Shown in pieces: positions 1,992 to 37,891 of a stretch of 62,478 nt of DNA. The stretch lies in IMG/VR virus record IMGVR_UViG_2877263951_000003; one strand, given 5' to 3'. A program made the position numbers and the translations under genes. How positions within the stretch are numbered: the first letter of the stretch is position 1; the number at the start of each line of letters is the position of its first letter. Source of the DNA: a virus (lineage: Duplodnaviria; Heunggongvirae; Uroviricota; Caudoviricetes). Under the pieces are notes generated by a model, which worked only from the letters and a program-made list of their open reading frames with translations, was not told the origin of the DNA and did not search any database.

Positions 1992-2555
1992 TTACTCAAC
2001 GTCAAACGCCCGAATTGAAGCCAAATCATCCAGACCGCTCAGCTCCTCTTTCATTTCACGCTGACGGCGATAAATCTCATCGTTGCGATCGACCTGCGCC
2101 TGCACCATTGCTGCCGCCAGTTCTTCCAGTTCCGGCATCGACAGTTTCACCTGCTGATTATCGGCATCACCCCACGTCATCACGTCCCGTACAATGTCGG
2201 ATTTCGCAGCCATTACCACCGGATAAAGGCGGCCCAGTGAGTTGGGGCCAGCATTCCAGATACGACCGTTCCATTCAAACGTGAACGGCTTCGCCTCCTG
2301 TTCTGTGCGCCATGCTTCAATTTCCTGACGTCTGGCCTCTCTGGCCGCTTCCAGCATTTCTGGTGTCACAGTGAATGGGGCTATCTCACCCCATTTGCCA
2401 CTTTGCAGTTCCTGCCAGATTCGCTGACCCGTCGGTGCGACATCATCAGCGGTGGCTGTGTAGGGGACTGCCTGGTCCCTGTCGTCAAAAAAAACGTCAC
2501 AGTCTACTGCGCCACTTTCGGTATAACGGGGATTAATGATTTTTTTAATTTCCAC
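1992..2555 (-). CDS. Phage tail fiber assembly protein (Tfa-like)
   Basis: Translation [38 protein letters not shown]... nearly identical to the Tfa at 58913..59476; GTG start preceded by GAGGA. The supplied ORF 1992..2636 runs on into IS600-derived codons; IS600 is inserted 55 bp upstream at 2611. Confidence 0.7.
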
Positions 2556-2674
2556 GGTGCATTCCTCACGATGTGCGAATAAAAAGCCCGGGCATTGCGC
2601 CAGAGACATGTGAGGTAGCCTGAGTTTAACGGACACTCCTTCCTGAAATAGAATGGCATCAGAAGGAGCTAATA

Positions 2675-2977
2675 ATGAGCAGAAAAACCCAACGTTACTC
2701 TAAATAGTTCAAAGCCGAAGCTGTCAGAACGGTTCTTGAAAATCAACTTTCGATCAGTGAAGGCGCTTCCCGATTATCTCTTCCTGAAGGCACTTTAGGA
2801 CAATGGGTTACCGCCGCCAGAAAAGGGCTCGGTACTCCTGGTTCCCGCACGGTGGCTGAACTGGAATCTGAAATTCTGCAACTGCGTAAGGCGTTAAATG
2901 AAGCTCGCCTTGAGCTCGATATATTAAAAAAAGCAACAGCGTATTTTGCACAGGAGTCGCTGAAAAATACGCGTTAA
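2675..2977 (+). pseudogene. IS600 orfA with in-frame amber codon at 2705..2707
   Basis: Reads MSRKTQRYSK then TAG where the other copies have GAG (KEFKAEAV...); the rest of the frame is intact. Confidence 0.8.
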
Positions 2978-3012
2978 TCGAACAATGGCGACAACAATTT
3001 CCCATTGAAGCG

Positions 3013-3831
3013 ATGTGTCAGGTATTTGGTGTATCCAGGAGCGGTTATTACAACTGGGTACAGCATGAACCCTCAGACAGAAAACAAAGTGATGAGCGGC
3101 TAAAACTGGAGATTAAGGTGGCACATATCCGCACTCGCGAAACATATGGAACCCGGCGGCTCCAGACGGAGCTGGCAGAGAATGGCATCATCGTTGGTCG
3201 TGACCGACTGGCACGTCTTCGTAAGGAGCTGAGGCTACGCTGTAAGCAGAAACGCAAGTTCAGAGCGACTACGAACCCGAACCACAATCTGCCAGTTGCG
3301 CCAAATCTGCTGAACCAGACGTTCGCTCCTACAGCACCAAATCAGGTCTGGGTGGCGGACCTGACGTATGTTGCCACACAGGAGGGATGGTTGTACCTCG
3401 CTGGCATCAAAGATGTTTATACGTGCGAAATTGTCGGCTACGCCATGGGAGAGCGCATGACAAAAGAGCTGACAGGTAAAGCCCTGTTTATGGCGCTCAG
3501 GAGCCAGCGCCCACCTGCCGGGCTAATCCACCACTCTGATCGAGGTTCACAGTACTGCGCATACGATTACCGGGTCATACAGGAGCAGTCTGGTCTGAAA
3601 ACATCAATGTCGCGTAAAGGTAACTGTTACGACAACGCTCCGATGGAAAGCTTCTGGGGAACGCTGAAAAATGAGAGCCTGAGCCACTATCGTTTTAATA
3701 ACCGGGATGAAGCCATCTCAGTAATACGGGAATACATTGAGATTTTCTACAATCGTCAGCGTCGTCACTCTCGTCTGGGGAATATCTCCCCGGCAGCCTT
3801 CAGGGAAAAATATCATCAGATGGCTGCTTAA
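3013..3831 (+). CDS. IS600 orfB transposase (DDE catalytic domain), 272 aa
   Basis: IS3-family signature WVADLTYVATQEGWLYLAGIKD ... HSDRGSQY ... CYDNAPMESFW; identical to the copies at 31063..31881 and 36752..37570. Confidence 0.9.
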   Translation: MCQVFGVSRSGYYNWVQHEPSDRKQSDERLKLEIKVAHIRTRETYGTRRLQTELAENGIIVGRDRLARLRKELRLRCKQKRKFRATTNPNHNLPVAPNLLNQTFAPTAPNQVWVADLTYVATQEGWLYLAGIKDVYTCEIVGYAMGERMTKELTGKALFMALRSQRPPAGLIHHSDRGSQYCAYDYRVIQEQSGLKTSMSRKGNCYDNAPMESFWGTLKNESLSHYRFNNRDEAISVIREYIEIFYNRQRRHSRLGNISPAAFREKYHQMAA

Positions 3832-3874
3832 AAAAAGAACAAATGGTAGTGTCCGCTATTGCCAGTACACCTCA

Positions 3875-4800: not shown

Positions 4801-5637
4801 TGAGGTGTACTGGCAATAGCGGACACTACCATTTGTTCTTTTTTTAAGCAGCTATCTGATGATATTTTTCCCTGAAGGCTGCCGGGGAGATATTCCCCAG
4901 ACGAGAGTGACGACGCTGACGATTGTAGAAAATCTCAATGTATTCCCGTATTACTGAGATGGCTTCATCCCGGTTATTAAAACGATAGTGGCTCAGGCTC
5001 TCATTTTTCAGCGTTCCCCAGAAGCTTTCCATCGGAGCGTTGTCGTAACAGTTACCTTTACGCGACATTGATGTTTTCAGACCAGACTGCTCCTGTATGA
5101 CCCGGTAATCGTATGCGCAGTACTGTGAACCTCGATCAGAGTGGTGGATTAGCCCGGCAGGTGGGCGCTGGCTCCTGAGCGCCATAAACAGGGCTTTACC
5201 TGTCAGCTCTTTTGTCATGCGCTCTCCCATGGCGTAGCCGACAATTTCGCACGTATAAACATCTTTGATGCCAGCAACATACGTCAGGTCCGCCACCCAG
5301 ACCTGATTTGGTGCTGTAGGAGCGAACGTCTGGTTCAGCAGATTTGGCGCAACTGGCAGATTGTGGTTCGGGTTCGTAGTCGCTCTGAACTTGCGTTTCT
5401 GCTTACAGCGTAGCCTCAGCTCCTTACGAAGACGTGCCAGTCGGTCACGACCAACGATGATGCCATTCTCTGCCAGCTCCGTCTGGAGCCGCCGGGTTCC
5501 ATATGTTTCGCGAGTGCGGATATGTGCCACCTTAATCTCCAGTTTTAGCCGCTCATCACTTTGTTTGAAGTGGCACACTGAATTTGGCCACCTGAACAGA
5601 GGTGATATGCTCACCTCAGAACAACACAGGTGCTCCA

Positions 5638-6806
<1,169 letters not shown>

Positions 6807-6922
6807 CCACTTCAGTTTTCTGTCTGAGGGTTCATGCTGTACCCAGTTGTAATAACCGCTCCTGGATACACCAAATACCTGACACATCGCTTCAATGGGA
6901 AATTGTTGTCGCCATTGTTCGA

Positions 6923-7225
6923 TTAACGCGTATTTTTCAGCGACTCCTGTGCAAAATACGCTGTTGCTTTTTTTAATATATCTCGCTCAAGGCGAGCTTC
7001 ATTTAACGCCTTACGCAGTTGCAGAATTTCAGATTCCAGTTCAGCCACCGTGCGGGAACCAGGAGTACCGAGCCCTTTTCTGGCGGCGGTAACCCATTGT
7101 CCTAAAGTGCCTTCAGGAAGGGATAATCGGGAAGCGCCTTCACTGATCGAAAGTTGATTTTCAAGAACCGTTCTGACAGCTTCGGCTTTGAACTCTTTAG
7201 AGTAACGTTGGGTTTTTCTGCTCAT
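6923..7225 (-). CDS. IS600 OrfA (copy B), 100 aa
   Basis: MSRKTQRYSKEFKAEAVRTVLENQLSISEGASRLSLPEGTLGQWV... intact. Confidence 0.85.
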   Translation of the reverse strand: MSRKTQRYSKEFKAEAVRTVLENQLSISEGASRLSLPEGTLGQWVTAARKGLGTPGSRTVAELESEILQLRKALNEARLERDILKKATAYFAQESLKNTR

Positions 7226-7440
7226 TATTAGCTCCTTCTGATGCCATTCTATTTCAGGAAGGAGTGTCCGTTAAACTCAGGCTACCTCAATATGCTTTCC
7301 TTCCAGGTAAACCTCGTGAACAATGTTATCAGTAGTTGCAACAGTGGCTTCATAATTGGTGTTCATGTTTTTCTCCTTAATTAAGGTTGAGCGAATCCCT
7401 GCCATTGCTGGCATAAATTCAGTTTCGAATAGTCAGTTAA

Positions 7441-16503: not shown

Positions 16504-16953
16504 ACTCCTGCTGTGTAACACCGTGCCACCGGAGAAAGCCGATGGCACATATACAACTGGTCAAACAAACCTCTTCCGGATTACTTCTCCCGGCGACGCC
16601 GGAGAGTTGCGATTTTCTGCATCAAATCAAAATAGGTGAGTGGATACACGCAGACTTTAAGCGTGTGCGTAACTACGCATTCCACAAGCGTTTTTTCAAA
16701 CTCCTGCAACTGGGTTTCGATTACTGGACTCCGGTCGGTGGGGCGATCACGCCTCGCGAACGAAAACTGGTGTCCGGTTTCGTTGATTACCTGTGTGAAT
16801 CAGTAGGCCGGGAACATACGCCAGCTCTGAGCGAAGCCGCAGAGCAATATCTGAATACAGTTGCGACACGCAGAACCCGTGATACGGCATTGCTAAAGTC
16901 GTTTGAGGCTTGAGGTGTACTGGCAATAGCGGACACTACCATTTGTTCTTTTT

Positions 16954-17745
16954 TTAAGCAGTCATCTGATGATATTTTTCCCTGAAGGCTGCCGGGGAGA
17001 TATTCCCCAGACGAGAGTGACGACGCTGACGATTGTAGAAAATCTCAATGTATTCCCGTATTACTGAGATGGCTTCATCCCGGTTATTAAAACGATAGTG
17101 GCTCAGGCTCTCATTTTTCAGCGTTCCCCAGAAGCTTTCCATCGGAGCGTTGTCGTAACAGTTACCTTTACGCGACATTGATGTTTTCAGACCAGACTGC
17201 TCCTGTATGACCCGGTAATCGTATGCGCAGTACTGTGAACCTCGATCAGAGTGGTGGATTAGCCCGGCAGGTGGGCGCTGGCTCCTGAGCGCCATAAACA
17301 GGGCTTTACCTGTCAGCTCTTTTGTCATGCGCTCTCCCATGGCGTAGCCGACAATTTCGCACGTATAAACATCTTTGATGCCAGCAACATACGTCAGGTC
17401 CGCCACCCAGACCTGATTTGGTGCTGTAGGAGCGAACGTCTGGTTCAGCAGATTTGGCGCAACTGGCAGATTGTGGTTCGGGTTCGTAGTCGCTCTGAAC
17501 TTGCGTTTCTGCTTACAGCGTAGCCTCAGCTCCTTACGAAGACGTGCCAGTCGGTCACGACCAACGATGATGCCATTCTCTGCCAGCTCCGTCTGGAGCC
17601 GCCGGGTTCCATATGTTTCGCGAGTGCGGATATGTGCCACCTTAATCTCCAGTTTTAGCCGCTCATCACTTTGTTTTCTGTCTGAGGGTTCATGCTGTAC
17701 CCAGTTGTAATAACCGCTCCTGGATACACCAAATACCTGACACAT
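16954..17745 (-). CDS. IS600 orfB with 9-codon in-frame deletion (probably inactive)
   Basis: 263 aa; LTYVAGIKD in place of LTYVATQEGWLYLAGIKD, i.e. loss of residues just after the first catalytic Asp. Confidence 0.8.
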   Translation of the reverse strand: MCQVFGVSRSGYYNWVQHEPSDRKQSDERLKLEIKVAHIRTRETYGTRRLQTELAENGIIVGRDRLARLRKELRLRCKQKRKFRATTNPNHNLPVAPNLLNQTFAPTAPNQVWVADLTYVAGIKDVYTCEIVGYAMGERMTKELTGKALFMALRSQRPPAGLIHHSDRGSQYCAYDYRVIQEQSGLKTSMSRKGNCYDNAPMESFWGTLKNESLSHYRFNNRDEAISVIREYIEIFYNRQRRHSRLGNISPAAFREKYHQMTA

Positions 17746-17780
17746 CGCTTCAATGGGAAATTGTTGTCGCCATTGTTCGA

Positions 17781-18083
17781 TTAACGCGTATTTTTCAGCG
17801 ACTCCTGTGCAAAATACGCTGTTGCTTTTTTTAATATATCTCGCTCAAGGCGAGCTTCATTTAACGCCTTACGCAGTTGCAGAATTTCAGATTCCAGTTC
17901 AGCCACCGTGCGGGAACCAGGAGTACCGAGCCCTTTTCTGGCGGCGGTAACCCATTGTCCTAAAGTGCCTTCAGGAAGGGATAATCGGGAAGCGCCTTCA
18001 CTGATCGAAAGTTGATTTTCAAGAACCGTTCTGACAGCTTCGGCTTTGAACTCTTTAGAGTAACGTTGGGTTTTTCTGCTCAT
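17781..18083 (-). CDS. IS600 OrfA (copy C)
   Basis: Identical to the other intact orfA copies. Confidence 0.85.
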   Translation of the reverse strand: MSRKTQRYSKEFKAEAVRTVLENQLSISEGASRLSLPEGTLGQWVTAARKGLGTPGSRTVAELESEILQLRKALNEARLERDILKKATAYFAQESLKNTR

Positions 18084-18380
18084 TATTAGCTCCTTCTGAT
18101 GCCATTCTATTTCAGGAAGGAGTGTCCGTTAAACTCAGGCTACCTCAGCTTTCCGCGAGTGGGTAGCCATTCAGGCCGGATTTTACACCGAGCATTTTTA
18201 TCCGGACGGTAGCCGTGGGTGTCGGGCGAAATCTATCGCGTTTGCGAATATGGACGAAACCGAGTTTCAGCAGGTTTATAAATCTGTACTGAATGTGCTG
18301 TGGAACTGGATTCTGTTCCGTAAATTTTCCTCTCCGGAACAAGTCGAAAATGTGGCCGCGCAGCTGCTGGAGTTTGCGTA

Positions 18381-18671: not shown

Positions 18672-18782
18672 TTTACCCAACGAATACAGGAAAAAGCGGA
18701 GAACACCTTCGTCTCACCACGCTGGAAAGTGTCTGGATTCAGGGAAAACTACGTATGTGGGGGCGCTGGTCGTATATTGGTG
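18668..18782 (+). pseudogene. N-terminal 38 codons of a gene truncated by IS911 copy 2
   Basis: MIYPTNTGKSGEHLRLTTLESVWIQGKLRMWGRWSYIG then IS911 end; no matching continuation after the IS. Confidence 0.3.
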
Positions 18783-18854
18783 TGAAGTGGCACACTGAAT
18801 TTGGCCACCTGAACAGAGGTGATATGCTCACCTCAGAACAACACAGGTGCTCCA

Positions 18855-20023
<1,169 letters not shown>

Positions 20024-20032
20024 CCACTTCAC

Positions 20033-27346: not shown

Positions 27347-27550
27347 TTGATGAGCGTCAAAATTCAAACGATACCGGAACTGCTTATCCAGACACGAGGT
27401 AATATGACCGAAGTTTCACGAATGCTGAACTGTAATCGCGCCACGGTAAGAAAATATGCTGAAGATAAAGAGGGCAAAGGGCACGCCATTGTTGATGGTG
27501 TTCTGATTGTTCATCGTGGATGGGACAGGGGTAAAGACAGTGATGCGTGA
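27347..27550 (+). CDS. ninH: NinH-like protein
   Basis: [58 protein letters not shown] resembles lambda NinH as recalled. Confidence 0.65.
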
Positions 27551-27923
27551 TATTCAGCAGGTTCTTGAGCGCTGGGGCGCGTGGGTGGCTAATAATCATG
27601 AGGATGTGACCTGGTCGTCCATTGCTGCCGGTTTTAAGGGATTAATCCCTTCAAAAGTAAAATCCCGCCCGCAATGCTGTGACGATGACGCGATGGTTAT
27701 ATGTGGGTGTATGGCCCGCCTTAACCGGAACAACAACGATCTACATGACTTGCTGGTTGACTACTACGTGTTTGGGATGACATTCATGACGCTGGCGCGG
27801 AAGCATGGATGCTCAGATGGTTATATAGGAAAGAAGCTACAAAAAGCCGAGGGGGTGGTGGAAGGAATGTTGATGATGTTGGGTGTCCGGTTAGAAATGG
27901 ACAAATATATTGAACATCCCTGA
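27543..27923 (+). CDS. Late-gene antiterminator Q (phage 21/82-type, QuuD-like)
   Basis: [60 protein letters not shown]...; followed by a tR'-like terminator, tRNA genes and the lysis cassette. Start could alternatively be 27507. Confidence 0.7.
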
Positions 27924-28122: not shown

Positions 28123-28199
28123 GGCCCTTTAGCTCAGTTGGTCAGAGCGAGCGACTCATAATCGCCAGGTCGCTGGTTCAAGTCCAGCAAGGGCCACCA
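28123..28199 (+). tRNA. tRNA-Ile2-like (anticodon CAT; Met-type anticodon, Ile2 by similarity to ileX/ileZ)
   Basis: Cloverleaf: acceptor GGCCCTT/AAGGGCC, D-stem GCTC/GAGC, anticodon loop CTCATAA, T-stem GCTGG/CCAGC, encoded CCA. Confidence 0.8.
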
Positions 28200-28200
28200 A

Positions 28201-28277
28201 CCACCACTAGCTCATCCGGATAGAGCATCAACCTTCTAAGTTGACGGTGCGAGGTTCGAGTCCTCGGTGGTGGGCCA
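28201..28277 (+). tRNA. tRNA-Arg (anticodon TCT)
   Basis: Acceptor CCACCAC/GTGGTGG, anticodon stem TCAAC/GTTGA, loop CTTCTAA, T-loop TTCGAGT, encoded CCA. Confidence 0.75.
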
Positions 28278-28279
28278 GC

Positions 28280-28355
<76 letters not shown>

Positions 28356-28358
28356 TAT

Positions 28359-28433
<75 letters not shown>

Positions 28434-28725: not shown

Positions 28726-28941
28726 ATGAAATCCATGGACAAAATTTCAACGGGCATTGCCTACGGCACCTCCGCCGGCAGTGCCGGCTACTGGTTTTTG
28801 CAGTGGTTGGATCAGGTCAGGCCATCACAGTGGGCTGCGATTGGTGTGCTGGGAAGTCTGCTTCTGGGGCTTCTGACTTATCTGACGAATCTGTATTTCA
28901 AAATAAGAGAAGACAAGCGTAAGGCTGCACGGGGAGAGTAA
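28726..28941 (+). CDS. Holin (S21/EssD-like pinholin) with dual-start motif
   Basis: [71 protein letters not shown]; two TM segments, Met1/Met4 dual start, RBS GGAGGTGAGG. Confidence 0.8.
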
Positions 28942-28944
28942 ATA

Positions 28945-29574
28945 ATGAAGCATGAAGAAATGAATCAGCGATTCAATCACCTGGAAAATGAAATCACTGA
29001 GCTTAATAAAAAATTGTCGGCGTTGGTGAGTTCTGAAGATGAAAACAAACGCCGCGATGAGCATTATGCGGCGATTTACGATTACTGCCACAAAGTCGCT
29101 CACGAGACTTTTATGAAGTTTTTGCAGGAAAAGTTTTTACCGGCCGCATTGTCAGAAAAAGAGGCGGCTTACCTGCGGCCTGAGTACGTCATTACGGTTA
29201 ACAGTGCCGGAGAGGAAGAGCATAAAAGTGATTTTATTGCGTCTGCACCGGATAAAGACCAGGAACCCCATCGGCCTTTCAGGGTTTCCTGTGAAGAGGG
29301 TGAGTTCGTCGTTTATGAGAACGGAAAACCTGTCCGGGCATCGCATCATCACTGCCTGAAAATTATTAATCTCGCTATCAGATGCCTGAAAGACGAAAAC
29401 ACCAGAGTTATGAAACGCATTGGCCGTTGCATGGGGTATTTGCAGGTGGCGGCAGAGATTGAAGCACTTGCCAGTGGTGCAGACATGGATGCTGCGGTGC
29501 GGGAGGCTCTTCTTCGTGATTTCAATACTCCCCCTTTAAGAAAGAGCCTGATGACTGGATCCAGCCGGGGCTGA
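28945..29574 (+). CDS. Hypothetical soluble protein inserted between holin and endolysin
   Basis: 209 aa, no TM segment, coiled-coil-like N-terminus, HHHC and CxxC-like patches; no family recognised. Confidence 0.45.
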   Translation: MKHEEMNQRFNHLENEITELNKKLSALVSSEDENKRRDEHYAAIYDYCHKVAHETFMKFLQEKFLPAALSEKEAAYLRPEYVITVNSAGEEEHKSDFIASAPDKDQEPHRPFRVSCEEGEFVVYENGKPVRASHHHCLKIINLAIRCLKDENTRVMKRIGRCMGYLQVAAEIEALASGADMDAAVREALLRDFNTPPLRKSLMTGSSRG

Positions 29575-29639
29575 CTTATCTTAAAAGGCGTATATAAGTT
29601 GGCTCGTTATTTGTTGCCGATAAATCCTGATAAATATCC

Positions 29640-30173
29640 ATGAGCGCAAAAATCAAATACGGCCTGTCGGCTGCTGTTCTGGCGCTGATTGCCGCAGGCG
29701 CGTCTGCTCCCCAGATACTTGACCAGTTTCTGAACGAAAAAGAGGGTAATCACACAACGGCATACCGTGATGGTTCTGGCATATGGACCATCTGTCGTGG
29801 TGCCACAATGGTGGATGGTAAGCCTGTCATACCGGGAATGAAGCTGTCGAAGGAAAAATGTGACCAGGTTAACGCTATTGAACGTGATAAGGCGCTGGCA
29901 TGGGTGGAGCGCAATATTAAAGTACCTCTGACCGAACCCCAGAAAGCGGGTATAGCGTCATTTTGCCCCTATAACATTGGCCCCGGTAAGTGTTTCCCGT
30001 CGACGTTTTATAAGCGGCTGAATGCCGGTGATCGTAAGGGCGCATGCGAGGCGATTCGCTGGTGGATAAAAGATGTTGGGCGCGATTGCCGCATACGTTC
30101 AAATAACTGCTATGGACAGGTTATTCGTCGTGACCAGGAAAGCGCATTAGCCTGTTGGGGGATAGATCAATGA
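29640..30173 (+). CDS. Endolysin (lysozyme-like, probable signal-arrest-release type)
   Basis: N-terminal hydrophobic SAR-like segment [18 protein letters not shown], then [12 protein letters not shown]...; sits between holin and Rz. Confidence 0.75.
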
Positions 30174-30637
30174 GCAGAGTCACCGCGATTATCTCCGCTC
30201 TGGTTATCTGCATCATCGTCTGCCTGTCATGGGCTGTTAATCATTACCGTGATAACGCCATTACCTACAAAGAGCAGCGCGACAAAAACGCCGGAGAACT
30301 GAAGCTGGCGAACGCAACCATTACTGACATGCAGCAGCGCCAGCGTGATGCTGATGCACTCGATGCTAAATACACGAAGGAGTTAGCTGATGCGAAAGCT
30401 GAAAATGATGCTCTTCGGCGCAAGCTTGATAATGGTGGTCGGGTGCTCGTCAAAGGAAAATGCCCTGTGCCATCCTCAGCCGAAACCTCCAGCGCCTCCG
30501 GCATGGGCAATGATGCCACCGTCGAACTCTCTCCAGTTGCTGGACGAAACGTTCTCGGTATCCGGGACGGAATCATCAGCGACCAGACAGCATTGAGAAT
30601 GCTTCAGGAGTACATCAGGACTCAGTGCCTGAAATAA
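30170..30637 (+). CDS. Rz i-spanin
   Basis: N-terminal TM segment [20 protein letters not shown] plus coiled-coil periplasmic domain; ATG overlaps the endolysin stop. Confidence 0.7.
30390..30596 (+). CDS. Rz1 o-spanin lipoprotein embedded in the +1 frame of Rz
   Basis: [44 protein letters not shown]: lipobox VVGC followed by a Pro-rich segment. Confidence 0.65.
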
Positions 30638-31062
30638 ATTTTTTTGCAAATCACAAAGTCCATTTAATGAGCCTCGCACTTGCGGGGCTTTTATATGTCC
30701 GCAGTAAACCGCGCATCGCAGCGCGTAACAATCCCGAGTCTTTCAGAAAGCTGAGCCTGAGAACTGCCGTATAGGTGAGGACCTCTCGGGGACGGCTTTT
30801 CTGTGCGAACAGGCTCAACTTTCTAAAGGAAATACCGACATGAACAAATCATTAACCGTTCTTCCTTCTGGCGAATACCCGACCATGAGCAGTCTTGAGA
30901 TGGTGGATTACATTAATGCTGATCGGAAATCCAAAGCGGAGGCGGAGGGGCTTGCGTTCCCCTGTAAGAAATATCGCAAACTCGAACACCGCAGTTTCAT
31001 GAAGAAAGTACCCAGGGTCTGAGGTGTACTGGCAATAGCGGACACTACCATTTGTTCTTTTT

Positions 31063-31881
31063 TTAAGCAGCCATCTGATGATATTTTTCCCTGAAGGCTG
31101 CCGGGGAGATATTCCCCAGACGAGAGTGACGACGCTGACGATTGTAGAAAATCTCAATGTATTCCCGTATTACTGAGATGGCTTCATCCCGGTTATTAAA
31201 ACGATAGTGGCTCAGGCTCTCATTTTTCAGCGTTCCCCAGAAGCTTTCCATCGGAGCGTTGTCGTAACAGTTACCTTTACGCGACATTGATGTTTTCAGA
31301 CCAGACTGCTCCTGTATGACCCGGTAATCGTATGCGCAGTACTGTGAACCTCGATCAGAGTGGTGGATTAGCCCGGCAGGTGGGCGCTGGCTCCTGAGCG
31401 CCATAAACAGGGCTTTACCTGTCAGCTCTTTTGTCATGCGCTCTCCCATGGCGTAGCCGACAATTTCACACGTATAAACATCTTTGATGCCAGCGAGGTA
31501 CAACCATCCCTCCTGTGTGGCAACATACGTCAGGTCCGCCACCCAGACCTGATTTGGTGCTGTAGGAGCGAACGTCTGGTTCAGCAGATTTGGCGCAACT
31601 GGCAGATTGTGGTTCGGGTTCGTAGTCGCTCTGAACTTGCGTTTCTGCTTACAGCGTAGCCTTAGCTCCTTACGAAGACGTGCCAGTCGGTCACGACCAA
31701 CGATGATGCCATTCTCTGCCAGCTCCGTCTGGAGCCGCCGGGTTCCATATGTTTCGCGAGTGCGGATATGTGCCACCTTAATCTCCAGTTTTAGCCGCTC
31801 ATCACTTTGTTTTCTGTCTGAGGGTTCATGCTGTACCCAGTTGTAATAACCGCTCCTGGATACACCAAATACCTGACACAT
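31063..31881 (-). CDS. IS600 orfB transposase (intact, 272 aa)
   Basis: Identical to 3013..3831. Confidence 0.9.
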   Translation of the reverse strand: MCQVFGVSRSGYYNWVQHEPSDRKQSDERLKLEIKVAHIRTRETYGTRRLQTELAENGIIVGRDRLARLRKELRLRCKQKRKFRATTNPNHNLPVAPNLLNQTFAPTAPNQVWVADLTYVATQEGWLYLAGIKDVYTCEIVGYAMGERMTKELTGKALFMALRSQRPPAGLIHHSDRGSQYCAYDYRVIQEQSGLKTSMSRKGNCYDNAPMESFWGTLKNESLSHYRFNNRDEAISVIREYIEIFYNRQRRHSRLGNISPAAFREKYHQMAA

Positions 31882-31916
31882 CGCTTCAATGGGAAATTGT
31901 TGTCGCCATTGTTCGA

Positions 31917-32219
31917 TTAACGCGTATTTTTCAGCGACTCCTGTGCAAAATACGCTGTTGATTTTTTTAATATATCGCGCTCAAGGCGAGCTTCATTTAA
32001 CGCCTTACGCAGTTGCAGAATTTCAGATTCCAGTTCAGCCACCGTGCGGGAACCAGGAGTACCGAGCCCTTTTCTGGCGGCGGTAACCCATTGTCCTAAA
32101 GTGCCTTCAGGAAGGGATAATCGGGAAGCGCCTTCACTGATCGAAAGTTGATTTTCAAGAACCGTTCTGACAGCTTCGGCTTTGAACTCTTTAGAGTAAC
32201 GTTGGGTTTTTCTGCTCAT
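31917..32219 (-). CDS. IS600 OrfA (KKSTAYF variant)
   Basis: 100 aa, one substitution relative to the other copies. Confidence 0.85.
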   Translation of the reverse strand: MSRKTQRYSKEFKAEAVRTVLENQLSISEGASRLSLPEGTLGQWVTAARKGLGTPGSRTVAELESEILQLRKALNEARLERDILKKSTAYFAQESLKNTR

Positions 32220-32699
32220 TATTAGCTCCTTCTGATGCCATTCTATTTCAGGAAGGAGTGTCCGTTAAACTCAGGCTACCTCAGTCCTCGGGGATGCAGC
32301 TGCAAAATTTTTTGCAACTGATACCTATATCAACGGAACAGGTGGTGTTGTGGAGAGGGATATTTGCAATTTTCCCAAGCGTGAAGCTTGCCTCATGGCA
32401 ATGAGCTACAGCTATGAGCTTCAGGCGCAGGTGTATGACCACATGACGGAGCTTGAGGGCGGGAAGGACATTAACCTCCTCGATTTCTCTGGCCTGACCG
32501 ATATGGCAATCAGCGAAATGCAAAACCGTGTCGCGGCTGCTGAGAAGTTCTCATTTGAAATGCACGGTCAAGCAGGTAGCGCTCTCATGACTCGTCGGAA
32601 GAAAGAGAAGAAGGCCATTAAAAAGGCTGAGCAGCTTGTGAAGGATCTGATTCAGTTCAAGCTATGTGACATGGGGGATTTCCCTGATGGTAAACCAGC

Positions 32700-33510: not shown

Positions 33511-34147
33511 CCGCGTTTCATAAAGTTGTTCGCAAGATGCATGTTTAAAACTCATGAGGGGAGATTTTTTGGCGAGGTGAACAGTGGCTACTCAGACTGA
33601 AGTTGCCAGGCATTTGAGTCTGACCGATCGCCAGCTTCGCAGATTACAGAAACTGCCGGGTGCCCCGGTTTCGAACAAGCGAGGACAACTGGATCTGGAT
33701 GCCTGGCGTGATTTTTACATATCGTATCTGAGAAGAAGTAAAAACGATGTGCCTGATGGTGATCCGGAAGAGGATTATGAAGAGAAACTGAGGTAGCCTG
33801 AGTTTAACGGACACTCCTTCCTGAAATAGAATGGCATCAGAAGGAGCTAATAATGAGCAGAAAAACCCAACGTTACTCTAAAGAGTTCAAAGCCGAAGCT
33901 GTCAGAACGGTTCTTGAAAATCAACTTTCGATCAGTGAAGGCGCTTCCCGATTATCTCTTCCTGAAGGCACTGAACCGCCCCGGGTTTCCTGGAGAGTGT
34001 TTTATCTGTGAACTCAGGCTGCCAGATCATCGTTTCCGATGGAAGCATAATAAGCTTTTTCTGCTTCTGCCGGAGGGATGTGGCCCAGCCTTTCCAGCAA
34101 TCGTCGATTGTTATACCAGTCCACCCACGTTAGTGTGGCTGAAGTGG

Positions 34148-35316
<1,169 letters not shown>

Positions 35317-35388
35317 TGGAGCACCTGTGTTGTTCTGAGGTGAGCATATCACCTCTGTTCAGGTGGCCAAATTCAGTGTGCCACTTCA

Positions 35389-36148
<760 letters not shown>

Positions 36149-36475: not shown

Positions 36476-36751
36476 CCTGTTTACCTCTTTCTCAGGAAGT
36501 TTAGTCTCCAGGATTCCCGGGGCGGTTCACACTTTAGGACAATGGGTTACCGCCGCCAGAAAAGGGCTCGGTACTCCTGGTTCCCGCACGGTGGCTGAAC
36601 TGGAATCTGAAATTCTGCAACTGCGTAAGGCGTTAAATGAAGCTCGCCTTGAGCGCGATATATTAAAAAAATCAACAGCGTATTTTGCACAGGAGTCGCT
36701 GAAAAATACGCGTTAATCGAACAATGGCGACAACAATTTCCCATTGAAGCG

Positions 36752-37570
36752 ATGTGTCAGGTATTTGGTGTATCCAGGAGCGGTTATTACAACTGGGTAC
36801 AGCATGAACCCTCAGACAGAAAACAAAGTGATGAGCGGCTAAAACTGGAGATTAAGGTGGCACATATCCGCACTCGCGAAACATATGGAACCCGGCGGCT
36901 CCAGACGGAGCTGGCAGAGAATGGCATCATCGTTGGTCGTGACCGACTGGCACGTCTTCGTAAGGAGCTGAGGCTACGCTGTAAGCAGAAACGCAAGTTC
37001 AGAGCGACTACGAACCCGAACCACAATCTGCCAGTTGCGCCAAATCTGCTGAACCAGACGTTCGCTCCTACAGCACCAAATCAGGTCTGGGTGGCGGACC
37101 TGACGTATGTTGCCACACAGGAGGGATGGTTGTACCTCGCTGGCATCAAAGATGTTTATACGTGTGAAATTGTCGGCTACGCCATGGGAGAGCGCATGAC
37201 AAAAGAGCTGACAGGTAAAGCCCTGTTTATGGCGCTCAGGAGCCAGCGCCCACCTGCCGGGCTAATCCACCACTCTGATCGAGGTTCACAGTACTGCGCA
37301 TACGATTACCGGGTCATACAGGAGCAGTCTGGTCTGAAAACATCAATGTCGCGTAAAGGTAACTGTTACGACAACGCTCCGATGGAAAGCTTCTGGGGAA
37401 CGCTGAAAAATGAGAGCCTGAGCCACTATCGTTTTAATAACCGGGATGAAGCCATCTCAGTAATACGGGAATACATTGAGATTTTCTACAATCGTCAGCG
37501 TCGTCACTCTCGTCTGGGGAATATCTCCCCGGCAGCCTTCAGGGAAAAATATCATCAGATGGCTGCTTAA
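36752..37570 (+). CDS. IS600 orfB transposase (copy E, intact)
   Basis: Identical to 3013..3831. Confidence 0.9.
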   Translation: MCQVFGVSRSGYYNWVQHEPSDRKQSDERLKLEIKVAHIRTRETYGTRRLQTELAENGIIVGRDRLARLRKELRLRCKQKRKFRATTNPNHNLPVAPNLLNQTFAPTAPNQVWVADLTYVATQEGWLYLAGIKDVYTCEIVGYAMGERMTKELTGKALFMALRSQRPPAGLIHHSDRGSQYCAYDYRVIQEQSGLKTSMSRKGNCYDNAPMESFWGTLKNESLSHYRFNNRDEAISVIREYIEIFYNRQRRHSRLGNISPAAFREKYHQMAA

Positions 37571-37891
37571 AAAAAGAACAAATGGTAGTGTCCGCTATTG
37601 CCAGTACACCTCAAACTACTCATTGCCAGATGGGAACTGACCGCAGAACAGGCTGTCGCACAGCAGTTAAAAAATCAGGTGTCAAAAGGAAATCTTATCG
37701 ATACCGGATTTTGTATTTTTGCCCTTAGTAAGCTGGCGATGGCTTTATCCAGTACGCTTGACTCCATTCCTTTGTCCATGCAACGACAGTTCCCGGATTT
37801 AACGCCGCGTCATATTGATCATCTGAAAATCCTTATTGCTAAGGGAGCGAATCAGTGCGCGCGTGCGGGGGATAAATTACCGGATTTACTC

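Follow-up and report, generated by a model that had tools for sequence, protein, structure and literature searches.

We find that the 209-codon open reading frame between the holin and endolysin genes in a 62,478-nucleotide stretch of viral DNA (Caudoviricetes; IMG/VR record IMGVR_UViG_2877263951_000003; the whole stretch is called the window below) is, judged from sequence comparison, a domain-truncated and frameshifted variant of the YdfR family, a widespread and uncharacterised family of prophage proteins. The explanation that we consider best, and in which our confidence is about even, is that this is a real late-operon gene occupying a variable 'ydfR slot', that the intact protein would be a dispensable accessory, and that the copy in the window is probably crippled.

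The ORF is located on the + strand at 28945–29574, beginning with an ATG at 28945 and ending with a TGA at 29572–29574. It encodes a stand-alone coiled-coil and C-terminal module that belongs to PHROG 1085, lacks the DUF1327 domain and has a frameshifted tail. The ATG follows the stop codon of the holin gene by 3 nt, and inspection of the sequence shows a good Shine-Dalgarno element (GGAG, 28933–28936, +) that lies 8 nt 5' of the ATG, inside the 3' end of the holin gene. Because more than 130 homologues were found and the window allele shows pairwise dN/dS values of 0.25–0.54 against the other alleles, the comparisons identify the ORF as a true gene and exclude a chance reading frame. The exact protein is already catalogued as a hypothetical protein (WP_001300760.1). 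It has a GRAVY of -0.63 and a pI of 6.1, and its maximum 19-residue Kyte-Doolittle value is 0.76, so that no transmembrane segment is expected and the protein should be soluble. Helices are predicted at residues 3–27 and 31–64, which is compatible with a coiled coil. An earlier note on this DNA had described a soluble, coiled-coil-containing protein that separates holin from endolysin, and both parts of that description agree with our results.

The holin gene (28726–28941, +) encodes a 71-aa S21-type class II holin, or pinholin, with a dual-start MKSM, and matches PF04971 ('Bacteriophage P21 holin S', E=5.5e-35) as well as PHROG holin families. On the other side, a spacer of 65 nt separates the ORF from the gene for a 177-aa SAR-type phage lysozyme, the endolysin (29640–30173, +; PF00959, E=5.4e-24; phrog_7 endolysin, E=1e-62). 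The N-terminus of the lysozyme is Gly/Ala-rich and SAR-like, and the E-x8-D-x5-T triad is legible in its sequence. The cassette continues with the gene for the Rz i-spanin (30155–30637, +; PF03245, E=5e-30; phrog_13), in which an Rz1 lipoprotein gene with the lipobox VVGC is embedded (30390–30596, +), and closes with a terminator-like hairpin (30669–30690, +) identified by consensus scan only. The terminator scan of the cassette detected none between the ORF and S, R and Rz. Embedded in the lysis operon in this way, the gene is placed for co-expression with the late genes, as the earlier note had proposed.

Four tRNA genes (CAT, Arg-TCT, Thr-TGT and Gly-TCC; 28123–28433, +; identified with ARAGORN) lie 3' of the gene for the Q antiterminator (27507–27923) and 5' of the holin gene, within the late-operon leader. 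The same tRNA arrangement is annotated in two homologous loci (L001 and L009), and in the near-identical E. coli prophage L001 the first tRNA is tRNA-Ile according to RefSeq. The types and order of the lysis genes in the window are those of the canonical phage 21 cassette (the S21 dual-start pinholin, the R21 SAR endolysin and Rz/Rz1); however, the window has an additional gene between S and R.

Scans of the window protein against Pfam, NCBIfam and PADLOC returned only sub-threshold coiled-coil noise. It does match PHROG 1085, a family of unknown function, with E=1.2e-73 over profile positions 117–288 of 296. The earlier statement that the protein belongs to no recognised family thus stands only in that there is no curated family of known function; the match corresponds to the C-terminal two-thirds of the long YdfR-family proteins on which PHROG 1085 is built. 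The portions of the profile left unmatched are the N-terminal 116 positions, which represent DUF1327, and the last 8, which represent the tail. DUF1327 (PF07041) itself finds no match in the window protein at E<=1, and comparison with the 104-aa YdfR by BLASTP (E=0.13) indicates that the two are unrelated. The window protein therefore differs from the YdfR family in lacking the domain that defines it, is unlike the short 103/104-aa YdfR proteins, and has a frameshifted tail.

The connection to YdfR is provided by longer relatives. Approximately half of the relatives are 259–333 aa in length and consist of an N-terminal DUF1327 (PF07041, which the long relatives score at E=9e-41) followed by the window-type module. 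P0004, a 333-aa protein annotated as 'YdfR family protein', bridges the two unrelated modules, as its residues 1–84 are 65% identical to the 104-aa YdfR and its residues ~118–333 are 82% identical to the window protein. The long forms from Salmonella carry an N-terminal domain that is a remote homologue of DUF1327 (hhalign 86%, E=5e-6). Taken with the long fused relatives and the P0004 bridge, this makes DUF1327 + coil + C-domain the likely ancestral architecture and the window gene a likely derivative that has lost DUF1327. No separate gene for a DUF1327 partner was found within the window. The order is reversed and split in certain E. coli prophages. In one of these (L004) a stand-alone C-module gene is followed by a 75-aa DUF1327 fragment (3170–3397, +), which indicates that DUF1327 and the C-module shuffle as units.

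In protein searches, homologues were limited to prophages of E. coli, Shigella and Salmonella. Among 5.8 billion proteins, 132 relatives were identified, all of them named E. coli or Shigella. A profile search at the same scale (5.8 billion proteins) identified 323 and added prophages of Salmonella enterica, and only 39 were recovered when 1.84 billion cluster representatives were searched exhaustively with a profile. Several relatives are directly followed on the 3' side by a convergent ORF of ~104 aa (PHROG 1853, of unknown function; orf6 of Stx2 phage 86). This ORF lies on the - strand at 3777–4091 in L002, 4599–4916 in L007 and 2993–3307 in L010. It occurs both in Stx phages of E. coli and in prophages of Salmonella, with 50% identity between the hosts, and is absent from the window. 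The PHROG 1853 ORF and the YdfR-family gene may constitute a two-gene module.

The earlier note had regarded the gene as an unusual insertion, a view that the distribution of the family contradicts. In S21/R21-type cassettes the slot between holin and endolysin is usually filled by a ydfR-family gene, and only the window-type sequence is rare. DNA of the S21/R21-type cassette was detected in 4605 of 5426 complete E. coli genomes and ydfR-like DNA in 4248 of them, whereas window-type sequence at >=80% coverage was present in 18. A match to the window-type protein was likewise found in 20 of 50,697 phage records. In the close relative PhiR47_1, whose S and R are 95.5% identical to those of the window and which has the same tRNA cluster, a 104-aa YdfR gene occupies the exact slot. 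The same layout, with the family gene after an S21-type holin and before a SAR lysozyme, is found in Qin (essQ-ydfR-rrrQ), in phage mEp460 and in Stx2 phage 86 (orf5, a fused form). The pinholin and SAR endolysin pair is also commonly found without an intervening gene.

The survey of homologous cassettes that the earlier note had suggested gives a divided result. In E. coli-type loci the family gene is located between S and R, starting 3 nt after the holin stop codon in all 85 loci surveyed. However, in Salmonella prophages it lies 5' of the holin gene with a convergent small ORF between the two, and the holin and lysozyme genes overlap directly. One more distant member shows a Salmonella-like arrangement with the family gene upstream of the holin, and in another the family gene follows Q and precedes a holin of a different family (PF16080). 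Based on these gene orders, the constant feature is a location early in the late operon and near the lysis genes, rather than a location between S and R.

This variation bears on the suggestion that the gene is a regulator of lysis. A lysis-timing regulator of this kind would be a soluble partner of the S21 pinholin that binds the charged cytoplasmic C-terminus of the holin in the manner of an antiholin cofactor, and would tune the timing of membrane depolarisation and of SAR endolysin release. There is precedent in T4 RIII, which acts on holin T in the antiholin-cofactor model. A class II holin gene neighbours the family gene at every locus examined for this spacing, and the invariant 3-nt interval after it in E. 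coli-type loci suggests translational coupling and a fixed stoichiometry, and co-transcription with S, R and Rz, with no terminator between, points in the same direction. However, the occurrence of the family gene upstream of the holin in Salmonella and more distant members, with other ORFs between them and in one case beside a PF16080 holin, weakens this reading. In addition, the dual-start MKSM already supplies the holin gene of the window with an antiholin of its own, as in S21-71/S21-68. The window protein matches no PHROG lysis family and has no transmembrane segment, and DUF1327, to which the module is fused in relatives, is reported to have RNase E as its partner rather than a lysis protein.

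T4 RIII, P1 LydB and Mu releasin gp25 are examples of small accessory proteins whose genes lie within or next to lysis cassettes and which are expressed together with holin and endolysin. The likeness of the window protein to these is positional only, as it shows no sequence, profile or fold similarity to any lysis-category family. The family also differs from the soluble lysis regulators in that its position relative to the holin varies among members, and the window protein has no transmembrane segment. The lysis-regulator idea of the earlier note therefore finds no support in this survey, and we consider a role in lysis timing unlikely.

Selection on the gene was examined in 35 intact stand-alone alleles. 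The dN/dS ratio is 0.54 for residues 1–30, 0.38 for residues 31–65, 1.00 for residues 66–110, 0.31 for residues 111–150, 0.17 for residues 151–197, and 0.18 for the C-terminal tail. Intact alleles are thus under purifying selection that is strongest in the C-terminal domain and tail (dN/dS ~0.2). An N-terminal dN/dS above 1 proved to be an alignment artefact and vanished once the long fused forms were left out.

An AlphaFold2 model of the window protein from a 16-sequence alignment was too poor for use (pLDDT 48). The intact 217-aa relative P0002, modelled with 84 sequences, gave a mean pLDDT of 73, with values of 73–92 in the C-terminal domain. The low-confidence segment of this model (residues 74–108) coincides with the neutral, indel-rich stretch. 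Regional dN/dS and model confidence together divide the protein into three predicted parts: a helical hairpin (~1–64), a disordered and fast-evolving linker (~66–110), and a conserved C-terminal beta-meander/helical domain (~111–217). Foldseek searches with the P0002 model returned nothing at E<=1e-3 against BFVD or against the PDB. With a mean pLDDT of 73 the model is only of moderate quality, so that the missing fold matches are not strong evidence of a new fold. When PDB sequences were searched with a profile, nothing scored below E=0.047, the weak matches being to stathmin and an oligopeptidase. The conserved C-terminal domain of intact alleles (~111–217) thus has no Pfam model and no detectable relative in sequence or fold. 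In agreement with the earlier note, searches of profiles and structures (Pfam, NCBIfam, PADLOC, PDB sequence and three fold searches) yielded no curated family of known function.

The earlier note overlooked that the window allele carries a frameshift in the most conserved segment of the family. DNA alignment with four homologous loci reveals a 1-nt deletion at 29530–29538 (+), where the window reads ACTCC-CCCTTT and the relatives read ACNCCNCCCTTT. The missing nucleotide falls at ~29531/29532. Past residue 197 the ORF reads LRKSLMTGSSRG and then terminates, in place of the conserved tail. The ancestral frame of the tail (29532–29597, +) is still open, however, and in the shifted frame encodes PFKKEPDDWIQPGLTYLKRRI followed by a stop codon, exactly the tail seen in P0004. 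Without the damage the gene would run to 29597 and encode 217 aa, with a spacer of 42 nt to the endolysin gene as in the other loci. The lost 20-residue tail is the most conserved part of the family and holds the invariant residues K199, W205, P208 and Y212. Its motif, PPFK-x2-P-x2-W-x2-PG-x2-YLK, is not in the window ORF but is legible in the shifted frame. In the P0002 model the tail has a pLDDT of 82–87, and the model suggests that it packs on the C-terminal domain.

The tail motif is present in 71 of the 85 loci. Thirteen carry the altered tail of the window and are identical there, which is consistent with a single lineage, and the remaining locus is disrupted otherwise. The annotation of one further relative calls it a frameshifted pseudogene. 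At least 1000 contigs carry the exact 209-aa protein under the name 'bacteriophage protein [Shigella flexneri]', and the frameshifted allele is fixed in Shigella flexneri. Because the most conserved 20-residue tail has been lost through a 1-nt deletion, the window copy is probably crippled, that is, weakened or dead. The broken allele persists beside intact S, R and Rz genes, which also counts against a role in lysis timing.

The surroundings of the cassette are those of a degraded element. A ~1264-bp IS3-family element with a 272-aa orfB is present in at least 5 copies (2611–3874; 4801–5282 and 6815–7289; 16911–18147; 31020–32283; 36530–37616), and repeat analysis places one of these copies (31020–32283, -) 383 nt downstream of Rz. 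A second IS of ~1250 bp with a 279-aa ORF occurs in three copies (5566–6815; 18778–20031; 34139–35393), the first of which is nested inside another IS. This IS load fits a Shigella chromosome and a degraded prophage, and the cassette most likely resides in an IS-riddled lambdoid prophage of Shigella flexneri. The many IS copies indicate that the prophage is decaying. A 60-aa ORF (30840–31022) ends at the start of the IS at 31020 and is apparently a gene truncated by the insertion; in this region the near-identical prophage L001 instead carries ParD/ParE-like and KilA-N genes. Inverted repeats are found near the ends of the window, at 993–2180 versus 59288–60475 (97%) and at 2200–2610 versus 58858–59268 (94% complementary), and correspond to neither of the main IS families.

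It could be argued that the window allele is still fully functional, either because the tail is dispensable or because a -1 slip at C CCU UUA would yield the 217-aa protein (ending in TPPLKKEPDDWIQPGLTYLKRRI). The sequence C CCU UUA (29532–29538) is indeed a heptamer of the form X XXY YYZ and has the phase required, its zero-frame codons being CCU and UUA. No stop codon interrupts the out-of-frame tail, which matches that of P0004 exactly, and the allele, free of any second lesion, is fixed on at least 1000 contigs. However, the phase of the heptamer is an automatic by-product of a one-base deletion just 5' of the in-frame CCC UUU A, and the RNA downstream shows no more structure than its shuffled controls do (z=0.40). 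The frameshifted loci share one identical altered tail, as expected for a single lineage, while 71 of the 85 loci read straight through. Moreover, the tail is under strong purifying selection in intact alleles, and the prophage is decaying. Programmed -1 frameshifting was rejected as a candidate on two of these grounds, namely that no stimulatory structure lies downstream and that the two-frame arrangement is confined to one altered-tail type. Programmed frameshifting at C CCU UUA is therefore unlikely, and full function of the window allele by either route is in our judgement very improbable.

Under the explanation that we favour, a late-operon accessory gene of which the window holds a probably crippled copy, the intact protein would be a dispensable cytoplasmic factor that is produced when late transcription begins. 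It would act with the DUF1327 module or in place of it, on host RNA turnover or some other cytoplasmic target, and not at the membrane steps of lysis. The helical hairpin may mediate oligomerisation, possibly with DUF1327-coil proteins of co-resident prophages. The role alongside DUF1327 is suggested by the fusion of the module to that domain, a reported RNase E binder. The YdfR of Qin, which consists of DUF1327, bound the catalytic half of RNase E (residues 1–597) in two-hybrid and pull-down experiments, and also co-purified with RNA (PMC13232886). However, overexpression of YdfR had little effect on the transcriptome (PMC13232886), which counts against the explanation. Our literature search on the YdfR/DUF1327 family returned only this study of the RNase E interaction, whose subject is the DUF1327 part, and literature on genes between holin and endolysin in lambdoid phages contained nothing on the YdfR family.

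Several other observations weigh against the accessory-gene explanation. The link of the C-terminal module to RNase E and RNA would be an indirect one, through fusion to DUF1327, and the window protein is without the RNase E-binding domain. In a large lineage the frameshifted allele has become fixed without further disruption, and it might still function or be partly rescued. Finally, a role in lysis would equally predict the constant nearness to holin genes. The specific mechanism, in which the accessory factor acts with DUF1327 on host RNA turnover or another cytoplasmic target, is thus tentative and in our view doubtful. Phages are known to encode RNase E modulators, including T7 gp0.7, T4 Srd and phiKZ Dip, which are products of early or middle genes. 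The analogy of the window gene to these is possible and functional only, as there is no homology and the window gene is late.

We also considered whether the gene is a moron that serves host interaction or anti-defence, with a target in host defence or physiology that has no connection to RNase E or lysis. It lies between Q and the lysis genes, where lambdoid and Stx phages classically carry morons and where toxin genes are close by. In the Q-holin region of the Salmonella prophage L007, an ORF just upstream of the family gene (2157–3137, +) has faint pertussis-toxin-S1/Scabin-like Pfam matches (ArtA-like). The family is narrow and mosaic, with shuffled modules and a linker dN/dS of ~1, and many relatives are paired with the convergent small ORF phrog_1853, all of which speaks for this reading. 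However, the gene has no promoter or terminator of its own and is embedded in the late operon, and late expression is odd timing for anti-defence. Neither the window protein nor P0002 matches a PADLOC defence model; a further relative, P0090, gave only PbeC at E=0.018, over the coiled-coil stretch. This reading has, in our estimation, a small likelihood, similar to that of lysis timing.

Among the lysis cassettes of prophages in E. coli, Shigella and Salmonella, those of Stx phages included, the one that contains the ydfR slot is one of the commonest, and the slot holds at least two unrelated modules, DUF1327 and the coil + C-domain, which occur fused, split or alone. The copy in the window is itself of small value, as it is a frameshifted, already catalogued allele whose prophage is decaying; it is the whole family that is worth experimental study. 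The variety of modules, the purifying selection on the C-domain and the unfixed position relative to the holin argue against assuming that a gene between S and R is a lysis regulator. It is conceivable, though unlikely on present evidence, that the C-terminal domain is a new phage domain that works with DUF1327 as a late modulator of a host cytoplasmic machine, for which RNase E is the sole candidate. If this were true, the ydfR slot would encode an unrecognised function in host takeover or in the protection of late mRNA, instead of a function in lysis.
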